Shown: piece by piece, positions 8,947-63,633 of the stretch
Layout: every line of letters begins with the position of its first letter
Position numbering within the stretch: position 1 is the first letter of the stretch
From: an uncultured Micavibrio sp.
GTDB lineage: Bacteria > Pseudomonadota > Alphaproteobacteria > Micavibrionales > UBA1664
Reading direction: 5' to 3'
Assembly: GCA_964531715.1 (NCBI GenBank)
Contig: CAZHEE010000005.1
Span: forward strand, 21,365-85,364
DNA length: 64,000 nucleotides
Translations under genes and position numbers: made by a program
Notes under the pieces: generated by a model
Database searches by the model: none
Seen by the model: the letters and a program-made list of their open reading frames with translations, nothing else
What the model was told of the DNA's origin: nothing

Positions 8947-9037
8947 CGTCATTGCGAGGAAGCAACGTGACCGCGGCAATCCACACGATATCAATAATTG
9001 TATGGATTGCTTCGTCACTCCGTTTCTCGCAATGACG
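8947..9037. repeat. Palindromic MITE-like element with gtcattgc...ggattgc...gcaatgac architecture
   Basis: The termini cgtcattgcgagg / ctcgcaatgacg are inverted repeats, with an internal ggcaatcca / tggattgc pair. Related copies lie at 49513-49612 and 54050-54146. Confidence 0.8.
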
Positions 9038-35842: not shown

Positions 35843-36649
35843 ATGGTTGCAATGCGTTTTCCCGTTTTATTTCATCTATCTGCGCTGACGATTTTACTGT
35901 CTTGTACGCCCGTTAATAATCAGGGTGGTGATGATATGGTTGTTGATGGTAATCAGGCAGTTAACCCAAATGTACTATATAAACTACCTCTAGCGCAGGA
36001 GCGGGGTATGAACACCTCAATCATGGATGATCGTCTTCGCACTATGGTGAATGAGGCAAGCGATATTGAAAAACAGGTTGAGATGCTGGTCAATCGTCTT
36101 CACAGTTTGCGTGATGATATTGCAGGCCTAGAGCTCGTTGAAAAAGTGAGCGTCAAAGCCGATTTGGAGCCTTCTATACAGCAAGCAACGGCACAACCCG
36201 CAAGCCTAATTGTTGATAACATAGTTAATGATTTGGCAAAGCCTGCTATTGAGCCAGAACCTGTGATCGCTAAACCTGAACCGCAAATTATACAGCCTGT
36301 AAAAAAAGCCGCATCAAAACCGCAAAAACTGATGACCTCAAATAAAGAAGGTATTTTTAATGTCCGCCATGGCATTCATGCGGATAAGACACGGCTTGTG
36401 TTCGATATTAATGGTTCAACCATACATAATATGCAATTTGATGAAGAGGTGGGCATTGTCACGCTTACACTTCCCGAAACAAAATGGGTTGCGGCTTCTG
36501 GTGAGGTTTTTAATAAAGGTCGCATTTCTGGCTACGAAGCAAAAAATACAGGGGCAGGGACAATCATCGCAGTCGGCTTGAACAAGGCAAGGAAAGCCGA
36601 AATTTTTGCGCTTCAAAGCCCGTCACGGTTGGTGCTTGATATTTATTAA
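35843..36649 (+). CDS. Lipoprotein with a C-terminal AMIN domain
   Basis: Lipobox LLSC, a short coiled coil, a Pro-rich linker, then an AMIN-like domain (VRHGIHADKTRLVFDINGS...SPSRLVLDIY). Confidence 0.65.
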   Translation: MVAMRFPVLFHLSALTILLSCTPVNNQGGDDMVVDGNQAVNPNVLYKLPLAQERGMNTSIMDDRLRTMVNEASDIEKQVEMLVNRLHSLRDDIAGLELVEKVSVKADLEPSIQQATAQPASLIVDNIVNDLAKPAIEPEPVIAKPEPQIIQPVKKAASKPQKLMTSNKEGIFNVRHGIHADKTRLVFDINGSTIHNMQFDEEVGIVTLTLPETKWVAASGEVFNKGRISGYEAKNTGAGTIIAVGLNKARKAEIFALQSPSRLVLDIY

Positions 36650-37041
36650 GCAAGAATAGCCATTAATCTTTCGGGAATGCGAACGGCTTTGCCTGTTTTA
36701 ACATCAACGCAAACCAGTTTTACCATGAGGGTTGCTAGCGGCTGATCCTCACGATTCACAACTTGTTTCATTAAGAAAGATGTGCGCCCTGTCTCCTCAA
36801 TCGTGCTTGTGACGGTGAGTAAATCTTCTAACCGCGCCATCGCGGTATAGTTAATGTCGATATGGCGAACAACGATAACGATGTCATATTCTTCACGAAT
36901 ATCAAAATTGGTGAGACCTGCATCGCGCATCATTTCTGTCCGCGCACGTTCAGCAAACTTTAGATAATTTGCGTGATAGACAATCCCTCCCGCGTCAGTG
37001 TCTTCGTAATAAATGCGGATGTTAAAATTGTGACTTTTCAT
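36646..37041 (-). CDS. ybgC: YbgC-type acyl-CoA thioesterase (4HBT fold)
   Basis: RIYYEDTDAGGIVYHANYLKFAERARTEMMR. It follows ruvB, as in many Proteobacteria. Confidence 0.85.
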   Translation of the reverse strand: MKSHNFNIRIYYEDTDAGGIVYHANYLKFAERARTEMMRDAGLTNFDIREEYDIVIVVRHIDINYTAMARLEDLLTVTSTIEETGRTSFLMKQVVNREDQPLATLMVKLVCVDVKTGKAVRIPERLMAILA

Positions 37042-37093: not shown

Positions 37094-37253
37094 TGTCATT
37101 GCGGCAAAGACCTCAATTCAGTAAACTTTAATCGCAGAGTTATAGAGTAAGAGGAGTTCATTCTTTTATCTCTCAGTGTTCTCTGTGTACTCCGTGGTTA
37201 AAAAACTGATTGTTTATGGGTTTCTGCGCTCTTATTACTTACTCGCAATGACA
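37094..37253. repeat. 160-bp MITE-like element with tgtcattgcg / cgcaatgaca termini
   Basis: Perfect 10-bp terminal inverted repeats. The internal segments are shared, in inverted orientation, with 30620-30749. Confidence 0.8.
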
Positions 37254-37273: not shown

Positions 37274-38293
37274 TTAAAAAAGACCATCATCCGTAACAGG
37301 TGCAATTAACCCTAAATGTTTGTAGGCTTTTTCGGTCACGGTACGCCCTCTGGGTGTACGCTGAATAAGCCCTTGCTGGAGTAGATAAGGCTCGATCACA
37401 TCCTCAAGCACATCGCGCTGTTCTGATAATGCCGCGGCGAGGGTATCCAGCCCGACCGGTCCGCCTTTGTAATTCTCAATTATGATTGAGAGATAACGGC
37501 GATCCATATTATCCAGACCAAAACCATCAATATCAAGCTGTCGCAACGCTTTGTCAGCGATTTCTGAAGAAATAACCTCAACATTCGCCACTTGGGCGAA
37601 ATCACGAACACGGCGGATGAGCCGCCCTGCAATCCTCGGCGTTCCACGGCATCGTGATGCAATTTCCGCGGCGCCGCTCTCATCCAATGTTACATTCAGA
37701 AGAGAAGCCGAACGGCTGATAATTTTTTGCAATTCATCAGGCGTATAAAATTCGAGCCTGAGCGGTATGCCGAAACGGTCACGCAAAGGGTTGCTCACCA
37801 TGCCACTGCGCGTTGTTGCGCCGATAAGCGTGAAAGCCGGCAGCTCAATTTGAACCGAGCGTGCGGCAGGGCCCTCCCCAATCACAATATCAAGCTTCCC
37901 ATCCTCCATCGCGGGATAGAGGATTTCCTCAACAGCAGGATTAAGCCTGTGAATCTCATCAATGAACAACACATCAAAGTCTTGAACATTTGTAAGGATC
38001 GCCGCCAAATCGCCTGCGCGTGCAATCACCGGCCCTGAGGTGGCCTTAAAACCAACGCCAAGCTCCTTCGCAACGATTTGTGCCAAAGTTGTTTTCCCTA
38101 AACCTGGCGGCCCATGAAGCAGAACATGGTCGAGGGCTTCCTGCCTTGCGCGTGCCGCCTGAACAAAGACAGAGAGATTGGCTTTTAATTTCTTCTGCCC
38201 TGTAAAATCGGCAAGCGATTGCGGGCGGAGCGCGGGGTCTTCCCGTTCTCCCGCCGCTAATTCTCTGTTTAAATCTTCTACGCGCTCTTGCAT
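37274..38293 (-). CDS. ruvB: Holliday junction branch migration ATPase RuvB
   Basis: [12 protein letters not shown], Walker [10 protein letters not shown] and Walker B FIDEIHRL. The start is set at ATG 38293 (MQERVEDLN...); the track start at 38386 would overlap the GNAT gene. Confidence 0.95.
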
Positions 38294-38700
38294 TAGGCTA
38301 ACAAATTTTCCAATCGTTTCATAAAATAATGCTGAGTGTGTTTTCCCGCAAAATTCGGTAAGGTACAAAATTCTACAAAGCCGCATTTTTTATAAAAACG
38401 AGGAGCTTGGAATGATAATGTAGAAGCAATAATTTTATTTGCCCCATGTGCCTTTGCAAAATTTTCTGCTTCTTGCATTAATTGTGTGGCAATACCTTGA
38501 TTTCTTTTCTCGACAATTAAGTTATTAATTTCGAAAGTATCCCAAGCAATATGACCATCGAGGCCACCTAAAAATTTACCATTTTCAGTGGCTTGAAATA
38601 TAACAGGTTTATAATTGACCTTTGGTTCAAAATGGTTGTTATAATCTTCTAATTTCCTAAGTATACGATCATCAGCCTGATTCAGTTTTTCAATATTCAC
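38293..38700 (-). CDS. GNAT-family N-acetyltransferase (135 aa) embedded between ruvA and ruvB
   Basis: Acetyl-CoA motif [24 protein letters not shown] and the C-terminal FYKKCGF. Its GTG start overlaps the ruvA TGA (GTGA), and its TAA stop overlaps the ruvB ATG by 1 nt. Confidence 0.8.
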
Positions 38701-39311
38701 GCGGATAGCTCCTTCAATCCTTGTTTAATCAATGTACCAAGGTCGGCATCATCGGTCAGATTTTGCTTCGCGCGGTTAATGGCTATCATGGCCTCGCTGC
38801 GACCATAGCCAAGATTGACGAGAGCAGAAAGAGCTTCGGCGATGTCATCATTATTATTATTCGGAAGAGCAATATCTCTTGTACCATGGGTGGCTGGTGA
38901 TAAATCGATATTTGCGGTTTTGCCTTTCAGTTCGGTAACTATGCGTGTAGCAAGCTTAGGTCCGACGCCATCGGCTTGGGAAAAGACCGCCTTATCCTGC
39001 GCGGCGATGGCGAGCGATAAATCATTCGGGCTTGCCACTGATAAAATGGCGAGCCCGACTTTTGCGCCGACCCCTTGAACCTTGGTCAGGATGGTGAACC
39101 ATTCCTGTTCCAACGCATCTGCAAATCCGTAAAGATGAATATGATCCTCACGCACATGGGTTTCGATGAGGACAGAAGTGCTATCGCCAATGTTCCCGAT
39201 TTTGCCTAGAGTTCGCGAACTGGCAAAGACGATGTAGCCAACGCCATGCACATCCAGCAATAGCCTGTTGGACTCTATCGCATCAATTTTACCTGTCAAT
39301 TTTCCGATCAT
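38697..39311 (-). CDS. ruvA: Holliday junction DNA helicase subunit RuvA
   Basis: MIGKLTGKIDAI...LLDVHGVGYIV, the HhH motifs VQGVGAKVGLAILS and ADGVGPKLATRIV, and the domain III motif LVNLGY. Confidence 0.95.
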   Translation of the reverse strand: MIGKLTGKIDAIESNRLLLDVHGVGYIVFASSRTLGKIGNIGDSTSVLIETHVREDHIHLYGFADALEQEWFTILTKVQGVGAKVGLAILSVASPNDLSLAIAAQDKAVFSQADGVGPKLATRIVTELKGKTANIDLSPATHGTRDIALPNNNNDDIAEALSALVNLGYGRSEAMIAINRAKQNLTDDADLGTLIKQGLKELSA

Positions 39312-39323
39312 TTCTGGTCTTTG

Positions 39324-39351
39324 GTTATTAGTTATTGGTTATTGGTTATTA
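39324..39351. repeat. Four tandem heptamers gttatt(a/g)
   Basis: gttatta gttattg gttattg gttatta, lying 13-40 nt upstream of the ruvA ATG. Confidence 0.8.
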
Positions 39352-39368
39352 GAGTAATATTATTCATT

Positions 39369-39863
39369 CTAATCACCAACCGCCAATGCCCAATTACTAA
39401 CACAATGATGCGCGTGGCAAATAGCAATGGCGAGCGCGTCTGCCGCATCGGCAGTTTTAAAGTCAGCCTTAGGCAATAATATTTTCACCATCATCTGAAT
39501 CTGTTTTTTATCCGCATGCCCTGCACCGACCACCGATTTCTTGATTTTATTGGCTGAGTACTCCGCAACTTCCAGACCCGCGCGGGCAGGAGCAAGGAAC
39601 GCCACCCCCCTTGCCATGCCAAGCTTTAAGGATGAAGAGCCGCTCTTATTAATGAATGTTTCCTCAATCGCGGATGTGTTTGGGTTATAAAGCGTGATGA
39701 CTTTCGCAAGTTCGCTGTCTATAACATTGAGCCGTTCCGTCATACTTGCTTTTGCATGGGGTTTGATAACGCCGCTGGCGATATAGCTTAGCACGCTGTC
39801 ACGCTTTTCAATAATGCCCCAGCCTGTATTATTCAATCCCGGGTCGATGCCAATTATTCTCAT
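39369..39863 (-). CDS. ruvC: Holliday junction resolvase RuvC
   Basis: MRIIGIDPGLNNTGWGII...EETF...ADALAIAICHA, carrying the catalytic D/E/D residues. Confidence 0.95.
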   Translation of the reverse strand: MRIIGIDPGLNNTGWGIIEKRDSVLSYIASGVIKPHAKASMTERLNVIDSELAKVITLYNPNTSAIEETFINKSGSSSLKLGMARGVAFLAPARAGLEVAEYSANKIKKSVVGAGHADKKQIQMMVKILLPKADFKTADAADALAIAICHAHHCVSNWALAVGD

Positions 39864-39885
39864 GAAAACGAGTGTAACGTGTTCT

Positions 39886-40644
39886 CTATTCGTTCGCCAT
39901 CATTTTTTCGGCGATGTCGTCCGATAAATCCATATTTGTAAACACAGCCTGAACATCATCGCTGTCTTCCAACGCATCAATTAGGCGCATATTCTTTTCA
40001 GCCGTGTCATAATCTACTTCGATAAGTGTTTGCGGTTTCCAGATTAAGCCAGATTTTTCGATTGATTTATACTTATCTTCCAAGGCTTTTTGAACCGCGC
40101 CGAAATCCTCCATTGCGGTGTATATTGTGTAATAGCCGCCTTCCTCAGTAATATCTTCCGCACCGGCTTCCAGTGCAAATTCGAAAACATCGTCAAAGCT
40201 TCCGACAGTGTTCGGCAAGATAACCTCGCCCACCTTATCAAATCCAAAGGCGACTGAGTTCGTCTCACCCAGATTGGCGTTTGATTTTGAGAAAAGCATG
40301 CGGATTTCGGCAACCGTACGATTACGGTTATCTGTTAAAGTTTCAACAATCACGGCAACGCCGCCATGACCATAGCCTTCATAGCGGATATCTTCATAAT
40401 CTGCCGAATCAGTCGCATTCGGATCGCCGACCTCGATCGCGCGGGCAATGCGATCATTGGGCATATTGGCCGCGCGTGCGGATGACATGGCAAGTCTGAG
40501 CCTCGGGTTCATGTCAGGATCTATACCGCCAAGCTTTGTCGCAACAGTAATTTCTTTCGCATGTTTGGCAAAAATCTTAGCGCGTTTTTTATCCTGCGCG
40601 CCTTTACGATGCTTAATATTTGCGAATTTTGAATGACCTGCCAT
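39886..40644 (-). CDS. yebC: YebC/PmpR-family transcriptional regulator
   Basis: MAGHSKFANIKHRKGAQDKKRAKIF...YEGYGHGGVA. Confidence 0.95.
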   Translation of the reverse strand: MAGHSKFANIKHRKGAQDKKRAKIFAKHAKEITVATKLGGIDPDMNPRLRLAMSSARAANMPNDRIARAIEVGDPNATDSADYEDIRYEGYGHGGVAVIVETLTDNRNRTVAEIRMLFSKSNANLGETNSVAFGFDKVGEVILPNTVGSFDDVFEFALEAGAEDITEEGGYYTIYTAMEDFGAVQKALEDKYKSIEKSGLIWKPQTLIEVDYDTAEKNMRLIDALEDSDDVQAVFTNMDLSDDIAEKMMANE

Positions 40645-55997: not shown

Positions 55998-56012
55998 TTT
56001 TTGAAGTTAGAG

Positions 56013-56816
56013 ATGAGATTTGAAGATAGTCCACATGAAATAAAAGATTTAGTTGCCGAAATTGACGGGCAACCTGCCCAAGCTATACTCATAGCGGCTT
56101 CTGAAAAGCTTGGTATAAATTGGAAAGAGATGCCAGCTAACAAAGTTTATAGTTTTATTATGAGGCAAGTAGCCGCAGATGGAACACAAGGCGATCTACA
56201 TAATGCTCGCTCCCGTCTTATGTCACTTGTAAACGGTGCAAGAGATAATTTAAGAGGTAAAGATAAAAAAGGCTCTTTATGGTCTAAGCCGCTTGAGCGT
56301 CCCATCTCAGCTAGACCAAATTTTACAAGAGAGGCATCTGAAAATAAAAGAAAATTTGAGTTTGCAGCCATTCTTCATGATATCATGATAGGATTTAAAA
56401 AATAGCATCCTGAAAAAGATAAAAAGCTTTTAGAAAATTATGGGGATATGCTAATAGCATTAATAGATAACTCTGGATACGCAAAAAATGAATTGGCAGA
56501 GCTGATATGTTTTCGGCTCAATGATAATATAGTACATCACTTTGGTTTAGCTAAAAAGCTATTAAAGGAAAATAGAATTGCCTTTAATAGGCATATACTT
56601 CCTCATTTTGTTGAAGGTTTTAACCGGTCAAAACCAGAAAAAGACTTGATATCCTTTTTATTGATGGGGCAAGAGTTAATAAGCCTAATTGAGTCAGGAG
56701 CAGATGCAGGAATAATTGGACAGCGCATAAATCAAGAAAAGTGTAAAAGGCATAAAGCACTAAATGCAAAACTTGACAGAGTTAATAACTATTCAAATTC
56801 TTTTCAATATAACTGA
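56013..56816 (+). pseudogene. AT-rich 267-codon reading frame split by one in-frame TAG (track ORFs 56001..56405 and 56448..56816)
   Basis: Both ORFs are in the same frame. Only the TAG at 56403-56405 separates them, and the 42 nt between them contain no other stop. Confidence 0.55.
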
Positions 56817-56821
56817 CTGAT

Positions 56822-56890
56822 CGAAACGCTTGGCACCTCCAAGATGCGCAGGATAAATTCCCGAATATTCAATTCAGTGACGTGAAGTGA
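56822..56890 (+). pseudogene. prfC: Orphaned native 3' terminus of prfC (23 codons)
   Basis: It translates as RNAWHLQDAQDKFPNIQFSDVK*, against RNAWHLQDAQDKFPNIRFADVK* at 55897-55965. A 20-nt core is identical and the other differences are mostly synonymous. Confidence 0.85.
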
Positions 56891-57109
56891 CTAGCGTTTA
56901 AATTTCCGTGGTTCGCTTGTTACAGGAACTCTTGCAAGGGCAGGTGCTTGTTGTAGATGTCTTTGAGCGGCTGAACCGCCCACAAGCGCTACGCCTGCTA
57001 AATTATTTGCTTTTTCAAAAAAGCGTCCTACAGCTTCCATACCTTGTTCAACTTTTGGGACTATATAATTTGCGACTTTCATAAATGCCATCCTTGCGAA
57101 ATTTTCCAT
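56891..57109 (-). CDS. Small ORFan, paralogue A (72 aa)
   Basis: MENFARMAFMKVANYIVPKVEQGMEAVGRFFEKANNLAGV... It has an AGGAGA SD and is a paralogue of 58521..58715. Confidence 0.55.
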   Translation of the reverse strand: MENFARMAFMKVANYIVPKVEQGMEAVGRFFEKANNLAGVALVGGSAAQRHLQQAPALARVPVTSEPRKFKR

Positions 57110-57192
57110 TAACTTACTCTCCTACTATCTAATGCAAGTATGGCAGGAAAATGTTGATGAAATGTTAATAAAAAGTAGAATTTTATGAAAAT

Positions 57193-57407
57193 TTAAAAAC
57201 CCTTTATTCTCTCCACCATCGCGAAAAAACCATTGCGGCGGTTGGGGCAGAGGTGCTCACTTAAGCCTAAAGTCTTAAATATTTCTTCCATATTTATATT
57301 TGAAAGATCGCTTATATTTTGCCAGTGATAAACACTGATAACAAGGGCAATCAACCCGCGAACGATAAGCGCATCACTATCCGCAAGAATGTATAGCCGC
57401 CCGTCTT
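57193..57407 (-). pseudogene. sufE: sufE 3' fragment (about 70 C-terminal codons)
   Basis: It translates as ILADSDALIVRGLIALVISVYHWQNISDLSNINMEEIFKTLGLSEHLCPNRRNGFFAMVERIKGF*. At the nucleotide level it is collinear with 59565-59775 of the intact sufE. Confidence 0.85.
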
Positions 57408-57945
57408 GATCGCAAACCGCATAAAGTTTTGAGTTTAAGCCGCCTTTGGTTTTCCCGACAGCGCGGGGAACATCCCTTTTTTTAACAGAGAGCTTGCTGG
57501 CAGCCTGTCCCCGGCCTGAACGGGGGGTGGGCTTTTAAGTGGGTGGCATCAATTTGTAAATGTTCAGGTTTAGACCCTTGCTCAACCAATGATTTGAATA
57601 TCTTATCAAATACACCCATGCGCGACCAACGGATGAAACGATAATATAATGTCTTATGTGGGCCCCCGGATCAGGGTCCGGGGCAAGCTCCAACATCAGG
57701 TGCATCACGCCATTGCAAACCACGCTTTAAAACATGGATAATACCACTCACTACGCGGCGGTCACCTGTTGCACGGCTTGACCGTGTAATCAACACGGGG
57801 AACGCTATGCGAACTTGGAAAATATCGTTAGATCACATTAAATTGTTCATCGCTTAACCAAAATATCACTCATAAAAATCTCCTTTTTCACAAGTAAATT
57901 ACATTCCCTTAATTGCAAAAAGACATGTTCAATAGGTCCTGAGCC
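57408..57945 (-). mobile_element. IS5-family transposase relic (N-terminal half; frameshifted, with small insertions)
   Basis: The minus-strand frames read WLSDEQFNVI., RRVVSGIIHVLKRGLQWRDAP, PHKTLYYRFIRWSRMGVFDKIFKSLVEQGSKPEHLQIDATHLKAH and AVGKTKGGLNSKLYAVCDQDGR. The putative terminal repeat is ggctcaggacctattg at 57945-57930. It is fused in frame to the sufE fragment. Confidence 0.8.
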
Positions 57946-58046
57946 TAGATTCGAGACTTACAGGTTATATCCAATAGTATATGATGGCTGCGAAGAAATT
58001 ACGGCTTAACTTGTTGAATCCTGTTGCGACCCTTCTCCTGTCTTAG
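57946..58046 (-). mobile_element. Second IS5-family relic (extreme 3' end of a transposase gene)
   Basis: The minus strand reads ..RNFFAAIIYYWI*, the typical C-terminus of IS5-family transposases. It abuts the other relic head-to-tail. Confidence 0.55.
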
Positions 58047-58213
58047 CTACTTCAGCTCTAAAAGTAAATTGTGACCACAGCCTTTCCCCGCGAAAGCGGG
58101 TGGCTTAAACACACGTATTTGAAATTAGTGTCTATTTGTGTACATTCGTGGTTGATACCAAAACACATATTGCCATTGTTCGAAGGCTGTTTTATATAAG
58201 AGGGCAATGGCAT

Positions 58214-58299
58214 GCGCCCGTGGCGGAATCGGTAGACGCTGCGGACTTAAAATCCGTTTTCCTTTGGAAGTGGGGGTTCAAGTCCCCCCGGGCGCACCA
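58214..58299 (+). tRNA. tRNA-Leu (anticodon UAA)
   Basis: Acceptor gcgcccg/cgggcgc plus A-CCA, anticodon loop ctTAAaa, a long variable arm, and the T-arm ggggttcaagtcccc. Confidence 0.9.
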
Positions 58300-58520
58300 A
58301 TTTTTCCTATAGTCATTAAATTAAAAAAACTTACAGATATGCGGGGAGTATTGACCTTTAACGGTGATTTAAGGTTGTGATTTTGCGTGTTTTTTTACAG
58401 CTTTTTCAATATGTTTAATCTTAATGGTGCAAAAATATGGCGAAAGAAAATACAGCTGAAACTCTAGGTTGTGTTTTTAACAAGTGAATCATCTTCATAA
58501 CATTTTAAAAAGCATAACTA

Positions 58521-58715
58521 TCAACACGACCTAGCGACTGGAACTCTTGCAAATGCAGGTTCTGGTTGTCCGAATAATTTACGACCCATAAGGGTTACAC
58601 CTGCTAAATTACTTGCTTTTTCAAAAAAGCGTCCTACAGCCTCCATACTTTGTTCAAATTTTGGGGCTATATAGTTTGCAACCTTCATAAATGCCATCCT
58701 TGCGAAATTTTCCAT
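58521..58715 (-). CDS. Small ORFan, paralogue B (64 aa)
   Basis: MENFARMAFMKVANYIAPKFEQSMEAVGRFFEKASNLAGV... The leader and SD are conserved with paralogue A. Confidence 0.55.
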   Translation of the reverse strand: MENFARMAFMKVANYIAPKFEQSMEAVGRFFEKASNLAGVTLMGRKLFGQPEPAFARVPVARSC

Positions 58716-58849
58716 TAACTTGTTCTCCTACTATCTAATGCAAGTATGGAAGTAAAATGTTGATAAAAAGTTAATCTTAAAAAAAGTTGACATAGAAATC
58801 TTTTTAATATAATTTAACCTTATGTTAATATTTATTGAAGGATATTGTA

Positions 58850-59518
58850 ATGAAATTATGTAATATATTTCGTAGGCGCACCCCAGCTTTAGTCTCAACA
58901 TCGGCAGCAGTAGTAGTTACAGCAGCAGCACTGTCAACTATACCTGGTAGTGCAGATGCGCAAAACTATGGTCTTGAAAGCTGTATATTGAAAGGTTGCG
59001 AGGCTCATTCAGCTAGTTTAGAGATGGGAGTACATCAAGGATTTTTTTATGAACAACCTGATAATCCTGAACAACATGATTTTAAGTCTGTTGATAGTGT
59101 TAAAACTCCTATTCAACATGAACTGTCTGATGAGAAGCTACGCATGTTAAGTCTTGGTTTAGCCGCAGGACAAGATTTTGAAGCCGCAGGTTCTGTTATA
59201 TACTCAGCAGATAGAATGCAAGAAAATCATAGTGCAGCTACCTTTGGTTTTATGGATAGTAACGGATGGGCTTTAGCGGTTTCTATAGAAGCTTTTACAG
59301 AAGGTAATGATAAGCCTGTTACCAATAAAATGAGAGGCAGGGGTGCAAATTCGGTTAATGTTGTAACTTCTTATGGAGTCCAAATCTCACGCACTCAAAT
59401 GGATGGTAATCTGGCCTCAACATGGTCTTTAGGATTGGGTTCAATTATAGAACAGGATGCTTACGAACTTGATGACAACCTTTTTCATATGGGGATGGGG
59501 ATCTATCAGAGAGTTTAG
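58850..59518 (+). CDS. Secreted hypothetical protein (222 aa from ATG 58850)
   Basis: The signal peptide ends GSADAQ. The sequence is Gly/Ser/Ala-rich with alternating hydrophobic segments and is AT-rich. I recognise no domain. Confidence 0.6.
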   Translation: MKLCNIFRRRTPALVSTSAAVVVTAAALSTIPGSADAQNYGLESCILKGCEAHSASLEMGVHQGFFYEQPDNPEQHDFKSVDSVKTPIQHELSDEKLRMLSLGLAAGQDFEAAGSVIYSADRMQENHSAATFGFMDSNGWALAVSIEAFTEGNDKPVTNKMRGRGANSVNVVTSYGVQISRTQMDGNLASTWSLGLGSIIEQDAYELDDNLFHMGMGIYQRV

Positions 59519-62190: not shown

Positions 62191-62811
62191 ATGTTTGTGA
62201 GCCAAGCGCATAAAGACTTCATCACCCAACAAATGCAGGGCTTGGCGGCATATGATGCCAAACGCCCTAAAGGCCATGTTTATGAGTTCCATTTGCATTC
62301 GAAACGTGTTGCCAAAACGCTCAAATCTTTTTCCCAAACATTAGGGTTTGATGAGGCAATGGCCGAGGCTCTTTATTGGGCGATGTTACCGCATGATATC
62401 GGCAAAATGGCAATGCCGGTCGAAATTTGGGATTTGCCTGAAAAACCCACGGAAGAAGAACGCCATGAACGCCGAAGCCATACTTGGCGGGGGGCGGATA
62501 TTGTGAAATCTCATTTTGGTGAGGAGGTTTGCGCGCAAGATACTTTTCTAAAGCTGATGATCGACCTCATGCTCTATCATCATGAATGTGTTGACGGGAG
62601 CGGCTATCGCGGATTAAAAAGCGAAGAGATGAGCCTTGAAATAAAGCTTGCCTGTATCTGTGATGCTTTTGATGGCTGGACGATTTTTCGACCACATTTC
62701 GATGATCGCGATACTTCGCCGAATGCGGTGATTGAGCGCATGAAAACCGATAAGGCTGGACAATTTGATACGCAACTTTTACTATCTTTTCAGGAGTTTA
62801 TGAATGATTGA
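62191..62811 (+). CDS. HD-GYP-type HD-domain protein (GYR variant)
   Basis: LPHDIGKMAMP, HTWRGADIV, YHHECVDGSGYRG and CDAFDGWT. It overlaps nfeD by 8 nt. Confidence 0.8.
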   Translation: MFVSQAHKDFITQQMQGLAAYDAKRPKGHVYEFHLHSKRVAKTLKSFSQTLGFDEAMAEALYWAMLPHDIGKMAMPVEIWDLPEKPTEEERHERRSHTWRGADIVKSHFGEEVCAQDTFLKLMIDLMLYHHECVDGSGYRGLKSEEMSLEIKLACICDAFDGWTIFRPHFDDRDTSPNAVIERMKTDKAGQFDTQLLLSFQEFMND

Positions 62812-63232
62812 GATTTTCTTTATTTTGGCTTTTGTCCTGTTGGTCAGTGAAGCCTTCAACCCGACTTTGGGCATTCAGGCTATTCTCGGCTTCTTATTTT
62901 ATGTGGCAGGCCTCTGGGCTTTTGTTCAGTCGGATGCAGAGACATTTTACGGTTTTACGTTAGGTAATATCATTACGCTTGGTATCATCTTCTTTGCCGC
63001 CTTTGTAATTTTGCTTGTTTATTTAAGGAAAAACCGCCACAAGAAAGTCGAGACTGGAGTCGAATCGCTTAAAGGAGAAGAAGCGACGGTTAAATCTTGG
63101 TCAGATACAAAGGGTATCGTTTTCATCGATGGTGAAGATTGGCGCGCAAGCGGTCCTGATACCATTAAATCAGGCGATATTGTTATTATTGAAGGCTATA
63201 AAGACCTAACATTAATTGTAAAACAGAAATGA
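62804..63232 (+). CDS. nfeD: NfeD-family membrane protein
   Basis: Three TM helices and a C-terminal OB-like domain (GEEATVKSW..GIVFIDGEDWRASGPDTIKSGDIVIIEG). Confidence 0.8.
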   Translation: MIEIFFILAFVLLVSEAFNPTLGIQAILGFLFYVAGLWAFVQSDAETFYGFTLGNIITLGIIFFAAFVILLVYLRKNRHKKVETGVESLKGEEATVKSWSDTKGIVFIDGEDWRASGPDTIKSGDIVIIEGYKDLTLIVKQK

Positions 63233-63633
63233 AAATTTTATTATTCTTCATATTGCTATTAACGGTTTCAGCACAAGCAAAGGCTTGTATAGGACCTCCC
63301 GCTCATTCCGCCGTATTTTTTGAAGCTTTACCTGTTGAATCTTTAGATAGAGAATATGTTTTTCTTATTGAAATCTTGAAAGATAGGAAGCAAACAGACC
63401 CTAGTAAAATAGTAACAGTAAAAGTTTTAAATAAAAAAAAGGGCAAGAAAGATTTTAAAAAAATAGACATTTCTATACCTCTACATACTTGTTATGGTGG
63501 TCGAGACCTTGAAAAAGGACAAAAATTTTTCGTATCTGGTTCTTTTAAGTCTAATAATTGGTATGAATTTGGTAAAATATTTAATGCTGAAATGAAATCG
63601 ATGGACATTAAGTCACCTCTATTCTTTTTCTAA
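63229..63633 (+). CDS. Secreted Lys-rich hypothetical protein, AT-rich ORFan
   Basis: The signal peptide is MKILLFFILLLTVSAQAKAC. It has an ATGA overlap with nfeD and is markedly more AT-rich than its neighbours. Confidence 0.55.
   Translation: MKILLFFILLLTVSAQAKACIGPPAHSAVFFEALPVESLDREYVFLIEILKDRKQTDPSKIVTVKVLNKKKGKKDFKKIDISIPLHTCYGGRDLEKGQKFFVSGSFKSNNWYEFGKIFNAEMKSMDIKSPLFFF

Follow-up and report, generated by a model that had tools for sequence, protein, structure and literature searches.

The window, by which we mean the whole 64,000-nucleotide stretch analysed here, comes from an uncultured Micavibrio sp. and carries a ruvC-ruvA-ruvB gene string in which a gene for a GNAT acetyltransferase stands between ruvA and ruvB. 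Read along the minus strand, the locus contains the following genes and features.

39881-39895, minus strand: LexA (SOS) box-like direct repeat GAACGAATAGAGAAC, an exact match to GAAC-N7-GAAC
39369-39863, minus strand: ruvC (Pfam RuvC, E=6e-46)
39312-39368, minus strand: ruvC-ruvA spacer of 57 nt with AATAACC-like tandem repeats
38697-39311, minus strand: ruvA (NCBIfam TIGR00084, 180 bits against a cut-off of 85)
38293-38700, minus strand: GNAT N-acetyltransferase of 135 aa, GTG start and TAA stop (Pfam Acetyltransf_1)
38291-38295, minus strand: TAATG stop-start overlap of the GNAT gene and ruvB, a candidate termination-reinitiation site for ruvB
37274-38293, minus strand: ruvB, 339 aa (NCBIfam NF000868, 515 bits against a cut-off of 282)
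37094-37253, minus strand: MITE-like palindromic element with termini GTCATTGCG...CGCAATGAC (fold z=-2.7)
36646-37041, minus strand: ybgC-type thioesterase, the final gene of the conserved string (Pfam 4HBT_2 and 4HBT)

There is no intergenic DNA between ruvA, the GNAT gene and ruvB on the minus strand. The ruvA/GNAT junction is GTGA, where the GNAT GTG (38700-38698) overlaps the ruvA TGA (38699-38697), and the GNAT/ruvB junction is TAATG, where the GNAT TAA (38295-38293) has one base in common with the ruvB ATG (38293-38291). On re-reading, the coordinates and both codon overlaps given in the initial annotation were all correct. The K-E codons near the end of ruvA (38709-38714) form a Shine-Dalgarno sequence, AAGGAG, 8 nt before the GNAT GTG. 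A scan inside the operon found no coding-strand terminator-like site, and a scan of the window with Rfam found three tRNAs only, none of its matches being in the ruv region. The MITE-like element sits within the 232-nt spacer between ruvB and ybgC, where relatives have at most 80 nt or an overlap. It does not flank the GNAT gene, and a second element with the same termini lies at 8948-9036.

It had been allowed from the outset that ruvB might really start at 38386, in which case the GNAT frame would be a spurious overlap. Indeed, a 370-aa extended ruvB ORF (37274-38386) exists on paper, and the source contig is of the metagenome type, which brings a chimeric assembly into consideration as well. 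We give practically no credence to an artefact of either kind. The N-termini of relatives' RuvB align from the window ATG at 38293 (in the relative L128 the N-terminus reads MQDRVEDLNKELMDGEREDP), and upstream of this ATG the relatives have unrelated sequence. The start at 38386 was rejected, given that the extension is not conserved in relatives and that the competing frame is homologous to GNATs up to residue 130; this frame belongs to a real family and folds with a pLDDT of 94. As to a chimera, both junctions are seamless codon overlaps, the flanks are 76-90% identical to those of relatives, and the same protein is on record in two sources, on contigs of 98,689 and 79,321 bases.

Judged from its sequence and its structural model, the ORF is a real and intact gene for a GNAT acetyltransferase. 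The subfamily is uncharacterised and similar to PDB 1Y9W and 2G3A. The protein matches Pfam PF00583 (Acetyltransf_1) with E=6.5e-12 and 46.2 bits against a cut-off of 20.7, and it is also above the cut-offs of PF13508 and PF13673. The normal acetyl-CoA motif first described for it is present: motif A, R66-N-Q-G-I-A71, is intact and fits R/Q-x-x-G-x-G/A, the pyrophosphate-binding loop for acetyl-CoA. In the family alignment G69 and L74 are nearly invariant, and every family-invariant residue is retained in the window protein. The AlphaFold2 model has a pLDDT of 94.1, with 55 in the last block; the fold and the homologues stop at residue 130, and the last five residues, ENLLA, extend past the fold. 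Foldseek relates the model to 1y9w and 2g3a (E=3e-12 and 3e-10, TM 0.82-0.85), and a sequence search of the PDB finds 1y9w with E=6e-15. Some of the structural neighbours found by Foldseek are protein acetyltransferases, namely RimI, HP0935 and NatC; with the NCBIfam model for RimI (TIGR01575) the protein scores 31.5 bits, below the cut-off of 86.4. From its family, the GNAT would be expected to perform acetyl-CoA-dependent N-acetylation of some small molecule or protein.

The initial annotation also raised the TacT/AtaT-like toxins. According to this lead, the GNAT would be an aminoacyl-tRNA-acetylating toxin of the TacT/AtaT/KacT kind, which is an orphan or else has RuvA or RuvB as its unconventional partner. 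The protein is small and belongs to the GNAT superfamily, and nothing else speaks for this lead. No toxin is found among the 25 PDB sequence matches (E up to 10) or the top 50 Foldseek PDB matches, and there are no PADLOC hits. Toxins of this type are roughly 160-175 aa long, and the window protein, with 135 aa, is shorter. Further, no adjacent antitoxin gene (RHH/DUF1778 type, usually upstream) was seen at the GNAT locus. Both flanks are occupied, since ruvA and ruvB abut the GNAT gene by codon overlap, and therefore no small antitoxin ORF fits; the earlier remark that there is no partner antitoxin-like ORF was right. In our opinion, a toxin is exceedingly improbable.

The synteny survey agrees with the expectation that ruvA and ruvB are normally adjacent. 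The gap between them is <=141 nt in 76 of 80 alphaproteobacterial species loci, and therefore the GNAT gene is not an old member of the operon. It is absent from these 80 loci and from every one of the 15 other lineages in its clade, it is carried by one genome only, and it matches only itself among 5.8 billion clusters. Its nearest relative among ~1.8 billion representative proteins is P0007, 52% identical and the sole one above 50%; the P0007 gene adjoins an MscS channel gene at an unrelated locus, without ruv or SOS linkage. Looking up contigs by the exact GNAT protein returned no record, and no close relative was found in the viral contigs searched. Going by sequence records, no other sequenced genome has this GNAT.

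What this junction holds differs among related bacteria. The clade consists of marine Micavibrio-like bacteria with RuvA 74-84% identical to that of the window, and 15 other lineages were compared. Four of the loci (L087, L103, L113 and L124) came from a search of metagenome contigs with a degenerate DNA pattern for the RuvA tail (LIKQGLKEL), in which 12 of 40 matches were ruvA and the others off-target. Between ruvA and ruvB, five lineages have a hydrolase, seven have an empty slot, one has a 95-aa ORF and two have a broken slot, as follows.

Slot with a membrane-anchored alpha/beta hydrolase, joined by 4-nt, 1-nt or near overlaps: L126, L130/131, L001/L087, L002, L140
Slot empty: L103, L124, L128, L132, L137, L138, and L127 with a 63-nt spacer
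Slot with a 95-aa ORF: L113
Slot broken, ruvB displaced: L134, L136

The ruvA-ruvB junction is a pre-existing variable accessory slot in this clade. The initial annotation saw the GNAT gene as spliced into the ruvA-ruvB joint. We agree that it arrived later, and its arrival is lineage-specific, but no pristine joint was broken into, the slot having been variable beforehand. The hydrolase orthologues are 50-56% identical to one another, compared with 76-80% for RuvA across the same lineages, and therefore the hydrolase is as old as the clade. It seems reasonable to suppose that the slot was ancestrally held by this hydrolase and was then repeatedly emptied, refilled or broken. The best explanation for the position of the GNAT gene is that it was captured at a permissive site that is read through constitutively, together with the junction compaction typical of the lineage. 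Tight codon overlaps look like a habit of a compact lineage and not something special to the GNAT gene. The empty junction of L128 has the same TAATG pentamer and the same downstream sequence (window gccTAATGcaagagcgcgtagaaga, L128 gcgTAATGcaagatcgcgtagagga).

In the clade tree the window is sister to the empty-slot L137 (80% bootstrap) and then to the hydrolase-bearing L126. The backbone of this tree is weak (bootstraps 16-54%), and hence the order of hydrolase loss and GNAT gain, that is, replacement of the hydrolase or filling of an empty slot, is uncertain. Remnants of the hydrolase were sought by tblastn across the 64 kb without a match, and a comparison by eye of the 5' and 3' ends of the GNAT gene with the hydrolase ends showed no resemblance. 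PADLOC models matched neither the GNAT nor the hydrolase, the 95-aa ORF or a LysE-like ORF.

The junction between ruvC and ruvA varies too. In relatives these genes overlap by 1-4 nt, compared with the 57-nt spacer of the window, and in L138 and L140 a YafP-like GNAT, unrelated to the one in the window, stands between them. L140 retains a spacer between this GNAT and ruvA. In L138 the GNAT has lost its stop codon, and its frame now continues across the former spacer to end in an ATGA overlap with ruvA, which is a precedent for such compaction. We considered the 57-nt spacer of the window as a scar of a deleted YafP-like GNAT and rejected this, as it has no similarity to the L140 spacers.

With regard to base composition, the GNAT gene is more AT-rich than the flanking genes, as originally stated: its GC is 0.328 and its GC3 0.235, while GC3 is 0.493 in ruvA and 0.479 in ruvB. 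Over the 54 long ORFs of the window GC3 has a mean of 0.419 and an sd of 0.084, which places the GNAT ~2.2 sd low, in a group with about six other low-GC3 ORFs that have no Pfam match. This composition had been taken as a sign of later acquisition. The gene does look foreign. However, low GC3 by itself is weak evidence of recency, because the old resident hydrolase, the relatives' YafP-like GNAT and P0007 in its own genome are likewise AT-rich relative to their neighbours. Later acquisition nevertheless stands, on the absence of the gene from the 15 clade lineages, its near-orphan status in databases and its foreign composition taken together; an old, fixed operon member with host-like composition is not what we find.

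The way in which the gene arrived may have left a trace, in that its tail may be what is left of a duplicated ruvA tail. When the final 30 nt of the GNAT gene are set against those of ruvA, 16 of 30 positions agree (14-19 of 30 for relatives' ruvA tails); in a stop-anchored, ungapped comparison, 16 matches to the ruvA tail are reached by 0.1% of window 30-mers (p ~0.001) and by none of 87 other ORF tails. By gapped local alignment the similarity of the two tails in the window is not significant (p ~0.3), that at the hydrolase loci is at best marginal (L002, p ~0.04-0.08), and the GNAT-ruvA similarity partly covers residues native to the GNAT family. Marks of a mobile cassette at the GNAT gene (attC, terminal inverted repeats, target-site duplication, a neighbouring integrase or transposase) were looked for and not seen, and a repeat search around it gave short matches of chance quality only. 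A 17-nt repeat shared by the GNAT tail and the start of ruvA was discarded, because a dozen chance families of equal quality occur within the same 2.6 kb.

How the gene would be expressed can be read from its surroundings. The start of the LexA-like box is 32 nt upstream of the ruvC ATG; the box overlaps the stop codon of yebC and is followed by a -10-like hexamer, TACACT. GAAC-N7-GAAC is the complement of GTTC-N7-GTTC, and GTTCN7GTTC is the consensus in Caulobacter, where ruvCAB is SOS-induced (PMC9578287; PMC12700426); for Caulobacter crescentus the SOS regulation of ruvCAB is traced to da Rocha et al. 2008, as cited in PMC9578287. The motif occurs at -31/-32 (once -23) in 12 of 13 clade loci, even where the upstream gene is a different one, L140 being the clade locus that lacks it. 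Its half-sites are invariant and only the N7 spacer varies, and the outgroups L003 and L007 have GTTC-N7-GTTC at -38. The count of the motif in the window (2 matches, 1.45 expected) is not significant alone, and promoter-like sites, 12 against 7.7±2.6 expected, are not above chance and not informative. Because the conserved GAAC-N7-GAAC lies 32 nt upstream of ruvC, the ruvC-ruvA-GNAT-ruvB operon is probably SOS-regulated.

Having neither a promoter nor a terminator of its own, the GNAT gene would be transcribed within ruvC-ruvA-GNAT-ruvB. The promoter that would drive it is overlapped by the LexA-box-like motif upstream of ruvC, and therefore the GNAT is probably induced by DNA damage. Ribosomes are expected to start at the GTG overlapping the ruvA stop, using the AAGGAG in the penultimate codons of ruvA. 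In empty-slot relatives this AAGGAG of ruvA would serve ruvB directly, whereas ruvB of the window, now without a good Shine-Dalgarno sequence, would depend on reinitiation at TAATG after translation of the GNAT. The arrangement is consistent with co-transcription and translational coupling of the GNAT gene with ruvAB. The earlier statement that its expression is hard-wired to the Holliday-junction machinery would hold for expression only; a functional link to RuvAB is unsupported.

Such a link would be that the GNAT acetylates RuvA, RuvB or another recombination protein and thereby tunes branch migration. Its position between the two genes, with coupled translation, could give roughly stoichiometric co-production, and the protein acetyltransferases among its structural neighbours also point this way. 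However, RuvA and RuvB of the window are ordinary, passing the NCBIfam equivalog cut-offs by far; 15 related lineages do without this GNAT, its nearest homologues have no ruv linkage, and the closest structures, 1y9w and 2g3a, have no assigned substrate. We consider this role very unlikely. A literature search for an acetyltransferase within ruvAB returned no relevant report. In our opinion, the GNAT is probably, though far from certainly, a recent capture by this lineage alone, a passenger gene rather than a dedicated modifier of RuvAB.

Another explanation is a damage-linked role. The GNAT may be a selected, damage-inducible partner of the SOS/ruv operon, acetylating a genotoxic small molecule or a damage-related substrate in a role like that of YafP, a putative acetyltransferase under SOS control that modulates the genotoxicity of nitroaromatics (PMC3105422). 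If so, GNATs would be recruited to the operon repeatedly. Besides the conserved LexA-box-like motif, with its precedent in Caulobacter, the YafP-like GNAT between ruvC and ruvA in L138 and L140 speaks for this. Over its whole length the L138 protein is 28% identical to E. coli YafP (E=6e-12), with 49.5 bits to NCBIfam NF007338, below the cut-off of 146. The two copies are 53% identical to each other, and therefore that GNAT has been retained across divergence. Among ~95 alphaproteobacterial loci, GNAT cargo in the ruv gene string is limited to this clade. Two of the five same-strand cargo kinds within ruvC..ruvB are GNATs, more than a random draw would give, which hints at selection for GNATs in the operon.

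On the contrary, this enrichment argument is post hoc and comes from five cargo types, and L140 keeps its GNAT though it has no LexA box. The window GNAT has no detectable similarity to YafP (E=4.4, and NF007338 is absent from its NCBIfam hits) or to the L138 GNAT (E=2.2). It is a singleton whose only near homologue has no ruv or SOS linkage. In relatives the slot has the hydrolase, the 95-aa ORF or nothing, and contents so variable or absent indicate that no particular function is needed there. Given both sides, we regard a selected SOS partner as possible, if rather unlikely.

A broader version can be formulated. The ruvCAB genes of this clade may be a damage-inducible 'docking operon', the junctions of which accept single genes by codon-overlap fusion, and GNATs would be preferentially kept since acetylating a genotoxin or a repair-related target at the time of the SOS response would be an advantage; the window GNAT would then be a new, non-YafP SOS acetyltransferase, its translation gating RuvB synthesis. 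The suggestion of a GNAT preference comes from the two different kinds, YafP-like at ruvC|ruvA (L138, L140) and 1Y9W-like at ruvA|ruvB. We offer it as speculation and hold it to be doubtful.

The locus is a clean natural example of a foreign single gene fused into the operon of an essential machine without breaking that operon. The captured gene appears to borrow the codons of the upstream gene as its ribosome-binding site and would pass ribosomes to the downstream gene by the stop-start overlap. Intermediate stages are seen in the sister genomes, where junctions have spacers or are empty, a stop codon has been lost with read-through, or a cargo gene is interrupted by a nonsense codon. If the damage-linked reading is true, the list of SOS-operon acetyltransferases, very short so far and with YafP as its known example, would gain a second, unrelated GNAT type, and RuvB would be a repair helicase subunit for which dependence of translation on an accessory gene could be tested. 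In either case the understanding of Holliday-junction resolution would be unchanged.

Among known systems, integration hotspots or 'flexible islets' are sites where one position between core genes carries differing accessory genes across related genomes. The ruvA-ruvB slot is like them in holding different accessory genes at one position in related genomes. Unlike them, it lies within an operon, between two subunits of one complex, and has no intergenic DNA, integrase, tRNA or flanking repeat, a single gene being fused by codon overlap.

With regard to the protein, 1Y9W (Bacillus cereus) and 2G3A (Agrobacterium tumefaciens) resemble the window GNAT in size (135-140 aa) and fold, and the C-terminal motif SFQAPxFYxKxGF is common to all three. 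However, the identity is only 26-31%, the two have no assigned substrate and no ruv context, and they do not share the 5-residue tail that extends beyond the fold in the window GNAT.

With regard to the operon, Caulobacter crescentus ruvCAB shares with the window the gene order ruvC-ruvA-ruvB and the operator consensus just upstream of ruvC. It differs in that no inserted genes are reported for it, and LexA binding in the window is inferred only. E. coli YafP, of the LexA-regulated dinB-yafN-yafO-yafP operon (PMC3105422), is likewise an accessory GNAT in a damage-response operon of strain-variable gene content. The likeness of the window GNAT to it is one of layout and probably of regulation, without detectable sequence similarity, and the YafP-like gene of this clade is the other gene, at ruvC|ruvA in L138 and L140. 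Finally, YafP stands at the end of its operon, whereas the window GNAT stands between two subunits of one machine.

The ruv genes of the window form one string on the minus strand, with the gene of a GNAT-family acetyltransferase between ruvA and ruvB:

39886-40644, minus strand, yebC
39369-39863, minus strand, ruvC
38697-39311, minus strand, ruvA
38293-38700, minus strand, 135-aa GNAT ORF (Pfam Acetyltransf_1)
37274-38293, minus strand, ruvB
36646-37041, minus strand, ybgC-type thioesterase

The initial annotation located the GNAT gene, the ruvA stop and the ruvB start correctly. The sequence reads GTGA at 38700-38697, where the GNAT GTG start overlaps the ruvA TGA stop, and TAATG at 38295-38291, where the GNAT TAA and the ruvB ATG have one base in common. 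The product matches Acetyltransf_1 with 46.2 bits (cut-off 20.7, E=6.5e-12), has a canonical motif A (R66-N-Q-G-I-A71) and keeps all residues that are invariant in the family alignment (E79, A99, Y103, G107, K128). An AlphaFold2 prediction that drew on 18 relatives averages pLDDT 94.1, and low confidence is limited to the last five residues, ENLLA. That the gene is an artefact is in our opinion hardly conceivable. The annotation itself had considered that ruvB might start at 38386, which would make the GNAT frame a spurious overlap. This fails, because RuvB of relatives aligns from the ATG at 38293, the DNA that those relatives have 5' of that ATG is unrelated, and the GNAT frame shares homology with other GNATs through residue 130.

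A synteny scan with one genome per species gave 80 alphaproteobacterial loci, the best matches being labelled Micavibrio. The ruvA-ruvB gap is at most 141 nt in 76 of them. Of the other four, one stops short of ruvB, two (L001 and L002) have a gap of 796 nt, and L014 has a LysE-family gene. Within the window's own clade of marine Micavibrio-like relatives (RuvA 74-84% identical, loci gathered from metagenomes) the junction is variable.

Occupants of the ruvA-ruvB slot in the clade (L numbers are loci of related genomes or metagenome contigs)
258-268-aa alpha/beta hydrolase with N-terminal membrane anchor (Pfam Hydrolase_4 / Abhydrolase_1): L126, L130/131, L001/L087, L002, L140
Empty, ruvA stop overlapping ruvB start: L103, L124, L128/129, L132/133, L137, L138
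63-nt spacer: L127
391-nt spacer with a 95-aa ORF, no Pfam match: L113
ruvB no longer downstream of ruvA: L134/135, L136
GNAT: window only

The hydrolase junctions equal those of the GNAT gene in tightness, with TTGA where ruvA stops and ATGA or TGATG where ruvB starts. Identity among the hydrolase orthologues is 50-56%, against 76-80% for RuvA in the same loci, so the hydrolase is as old as the clade, and it is likely the ancestral occupant of the slot. In Micavibrio sp. UBA1664 it may be a decaying pseudogene: an in-frame TAA (L001, 5242-5244) replaces an I or V of the orthologues (LL*IHG against LIIIHG). The same is seen in L087, an assembly that is 100% identical to L001 and may not be independent of it. 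The junction is a rearrangement breakpoint too, since in two lineages ruvB has moved and ruvA precedes opposite-strand genes, namely carD in L134 (4172-4687) and, in L136 (3624-4208), a 194-aa ORF without known function and obg. This lineage packs its genes tightly and has used ruv-operon junctions many times as accessory slots. The initial annotation made the GNAT gene look like a one-off insertion into an otherwise untouched operon, a view that this variable slot weakens; the position of the GNAT gene is unusual but explicable.

In a neighbour-joining tree of RuvC, RuvA and RuvB, the window adjoins the empty-slot L137 at 80% bootstrap, and the next branch is the hydrolase-bearing L126 at 54%, the backbone being poorly supported. 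Because its sister has an empty slot, the window lineage would have gained the GNAT gene after the split from L137; the gene may either have filled a slot emptied of the hydrolase or have replaced the hydrolase. On the ruvB side the window reads gccTAATGcaagagcgcgtagaaga, which differs little from what L128 has at its empty junction, gcgTAATGcaagatcgcgtagagga. In GNAT relatives and in the solved protein 1Y9W the chain ends with the counterpart of residue 130 (..KRL), and the window protein goes on for five residues, up to its TAA in the overlap with ruvB. Ungapped and anchored at the stop codon, the last 30 nt of the GNAT gene and of ruvA match at 16 positions (14-19 for the ruvA tails of relatives), a value reached by none of 87 other ORF tails and by 0.1% of all window 30-mers. 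In a gapped local alignment this similarity is not significant, thus it is only suggestive of a decayed copy of the ruvA tail, or of microhomology used in recombination.

Two sister lineages have a different GNAT between ruvC and ruvA, of 185 aa and with overlaps at both ends in L138 (2447-3004), and as a 53%-identical orthologue of 158 aa in L140 (3432-3908). L140 also has the hydrolase at ruvA-ruvB and a DUF805 gene at ruvB-ybgC, so that three junctions are filled. Its GNAT gene ends 33 nt before ruvA, while the L138 homologue lacks that stop codon and runs through the old spacer to an ATGA overlap with ruvA; with L138:2960-3004 set against L140:3880-3941, the 33-nt spacer is homologous to the C-terminal extension SDLSGKNIK* of the L138 GNAT. 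The pair is a clear precedent for the formation of overlap junctions in the clade.

Several other features of these loci deserve mention. Small MITE/REP-like palindromic elements with termini GTCATTGCGAG...CTCGCAATGAC lie at 37094-37253 and 8948-9036 of the window, and such elements occur also at L138:2412-2445 and L081:6601-6666. One fills most of the window's ruvB-ybgC spacer (232 nt, against at most 80 nt in relatives), and half an element is joined to the ruvC 3' end in L138, directly 5' of the inserted GNAT. The ruvC-ruvA spacer of the window (39312-39368, 57 nt) consists largely of AATAACC-like tandem units taataaccaataaccaataactaataacc, whereas the two genes overlap by 1-4 nt in relatives. 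The conserved ruv-tol string is broken just after ybgC, since a convergent 268-aa ORF (35843-36649), overlapping the ybgC stop by 4 nt, stands where relatives continue ybgC-tolQ-tolR (MotA_ExbB, ExbD).

Among 5.8 billion clusters the window GNAT finds itself only, plus two weak matches; NCBI and IMG both record it, the contigs being 98,689 and 79,321 bases long. HMMER, run exhaustively over 1.84 billion representatives, gave one relative above 50% identity (P0007, 52%), a broad family of GNATs of 135-150 aa at 30-42% identity, and tandem-GNAT proteins. The P0007 gene follows an MscS channel gene; CMD, nitroreductase and AhpC genes are its other neighbours, and ruv genes are absent from the vicinity. 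The initial annotation had also pointed to TacT/AtaT-like toxins. No toxin-type GNAT was found among the PDB sequence matches up to E=10 and the best 50 Foldseek matches, and we give a toxin next to no credence. Neither a defence-system match nor a close viral relative turned up. RimI is excluded (31.5 bits, cut-off 86.4).

GC3 of the GNAT gene is 0.235, against 0.493 in ruvA, 0.479 in ruvB and 0.509 in ruvC (mean 0.419, sd 0.084, over 54 long window ORFs). As it groups with about six other window ORFs in the range 0.16-0.27, none with a Pfam match, the gene is part of the window's lineage-specific class. AT-richness is no clock here, because older or unrelated genes have it as well. The old hydrolase lies beneath both flanks in three of four lineages measured (0.335 and 0.396 in L001 and L002, 0.461 in L140; flanks 0.43-0.53), the GNATs of L138 and L140 have 0.28 and 0.27, and the P0007 gene has 0.244 in a locus of about 40% GC. 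The late acquisition suggested initially is upheld by synteny and rarity more than by composition. Another AT-rich ORF of 134 aa (63229-63633; GC 0.30, GC3 0.215, no Pfam match) overlaps the preceding NfeD-like gene (62804-63232) by 4 nt at its start, a 'spliced-in' layout like that of the GNAT gene. A cluster of low-GC3, Pfam-less ORFs at 56001-59518, around tRNA-Leu(taa) (58214-58299), looks like an integrated element or island; it has a duplicated 64-72-aa ORF (56891-57109 and 58521-58715), both copies beginning MENFARMAFMKVANYI.

The AAGGAG at 38709-38714, 8 nt before the GNAT GTG, consists of the codons for K-E at the conserved C-terminus of RuvA, and it precedes ruvB in empty-slot relatives. 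Since the window ruvB start has only a weak GGA 14 nt upstream, ruvB is probably translated by reinitiation at TAATG. A scan of the operon found no terminator-like site on its coding strand, and no more promoter-like matches than chance would give. The stretch 39881-39895, 32 nt 5' of the ruvC ATG, is an exact GAAC-N7-GAAC match. Its complement is GTTC-N7-GTTC, the LexA box of Alphaproteobacteria, which in Caulobacter is the LexA operator, ruvCAB being SOS-induced (PMC9578287, PMC12700426). The motif count of the window (2, the other at 57800-57814 in the low-GC3 cluster, against 1.45 expected) is uninformative by itself. In 12 of 13 clade loci the box stands at this same place; its half-sites never vary, only the spacer does, and it is kept also where a different gene stands upstream of ruvC. 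Two outgroups have it in the other orientation at -38. L134, L136 and L128 each have a large ORF of 334-464 aa on the opposite strand between yebC and ruvC, and they keep the box. The sole member without it is L140, where yebC has a different end (MAGD*) and is followed, before ruvC, by a 133-nt G/C-rich palindromic repeat CCCCTCCCCCTTGAGGGAGAGGG... (2782-2914). Given this conservation and the Caulobacter precedent, the slot gene is probably co-expressed with ruvAB after DNA damage; the 'hard-wired' expression of the initial annotation is plausible from sequence and has to be worded as a prediction.

On balance we consider it rather probable that the GNAT is a passenger of an uncharacterised 1Y9W-like subfamily, captured into a pre-existing slot, co-transcribed from the predicted LexA-box promoter and translationally coupled, with ruvB now dependent on its translation. 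That it modifies RuvAB seems very improbable. An acetyltransferase selected for a link to the SOS response, analogous to YafP, is unlikely as well, though better placed than a RuvAB modifier. The main argument for still considering a functional link is that GNATs are two of the five same-strand cargo types inside ruvC..ruvB, a count made after the fact. In about 95 loci, GNAT cargo of the yebC..ybgC string is confined to this clade, the other cargo being LysE, a TPR-methyltransferase, an HTH protein, an AAA_28 protein, a Vut_1 transporter and Pfam-less ORFs.

The best solved relatives of the window GNAT are 1Y9W of B. cereus (E=6e-15) and 2G3A of A. tumefaciens, both structural-genomics entries with no substrate known. 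The window GNAT shows no similarity to E. coli YafP and is unrelated to the L138 GNAT (E=2.2), and this speaks against the analogy. It is the L138/L140 type that is 28% identical to YafP over its full length (E=6e-12), with NF007338 as best NCBIfam match, below that model's cut-off. The gene of YafP, a putative acetyltransferase, belongs to the LexA-regulated dinB operon, and the protein modulates nitroaromatic genotoxicity (PMC3105422).
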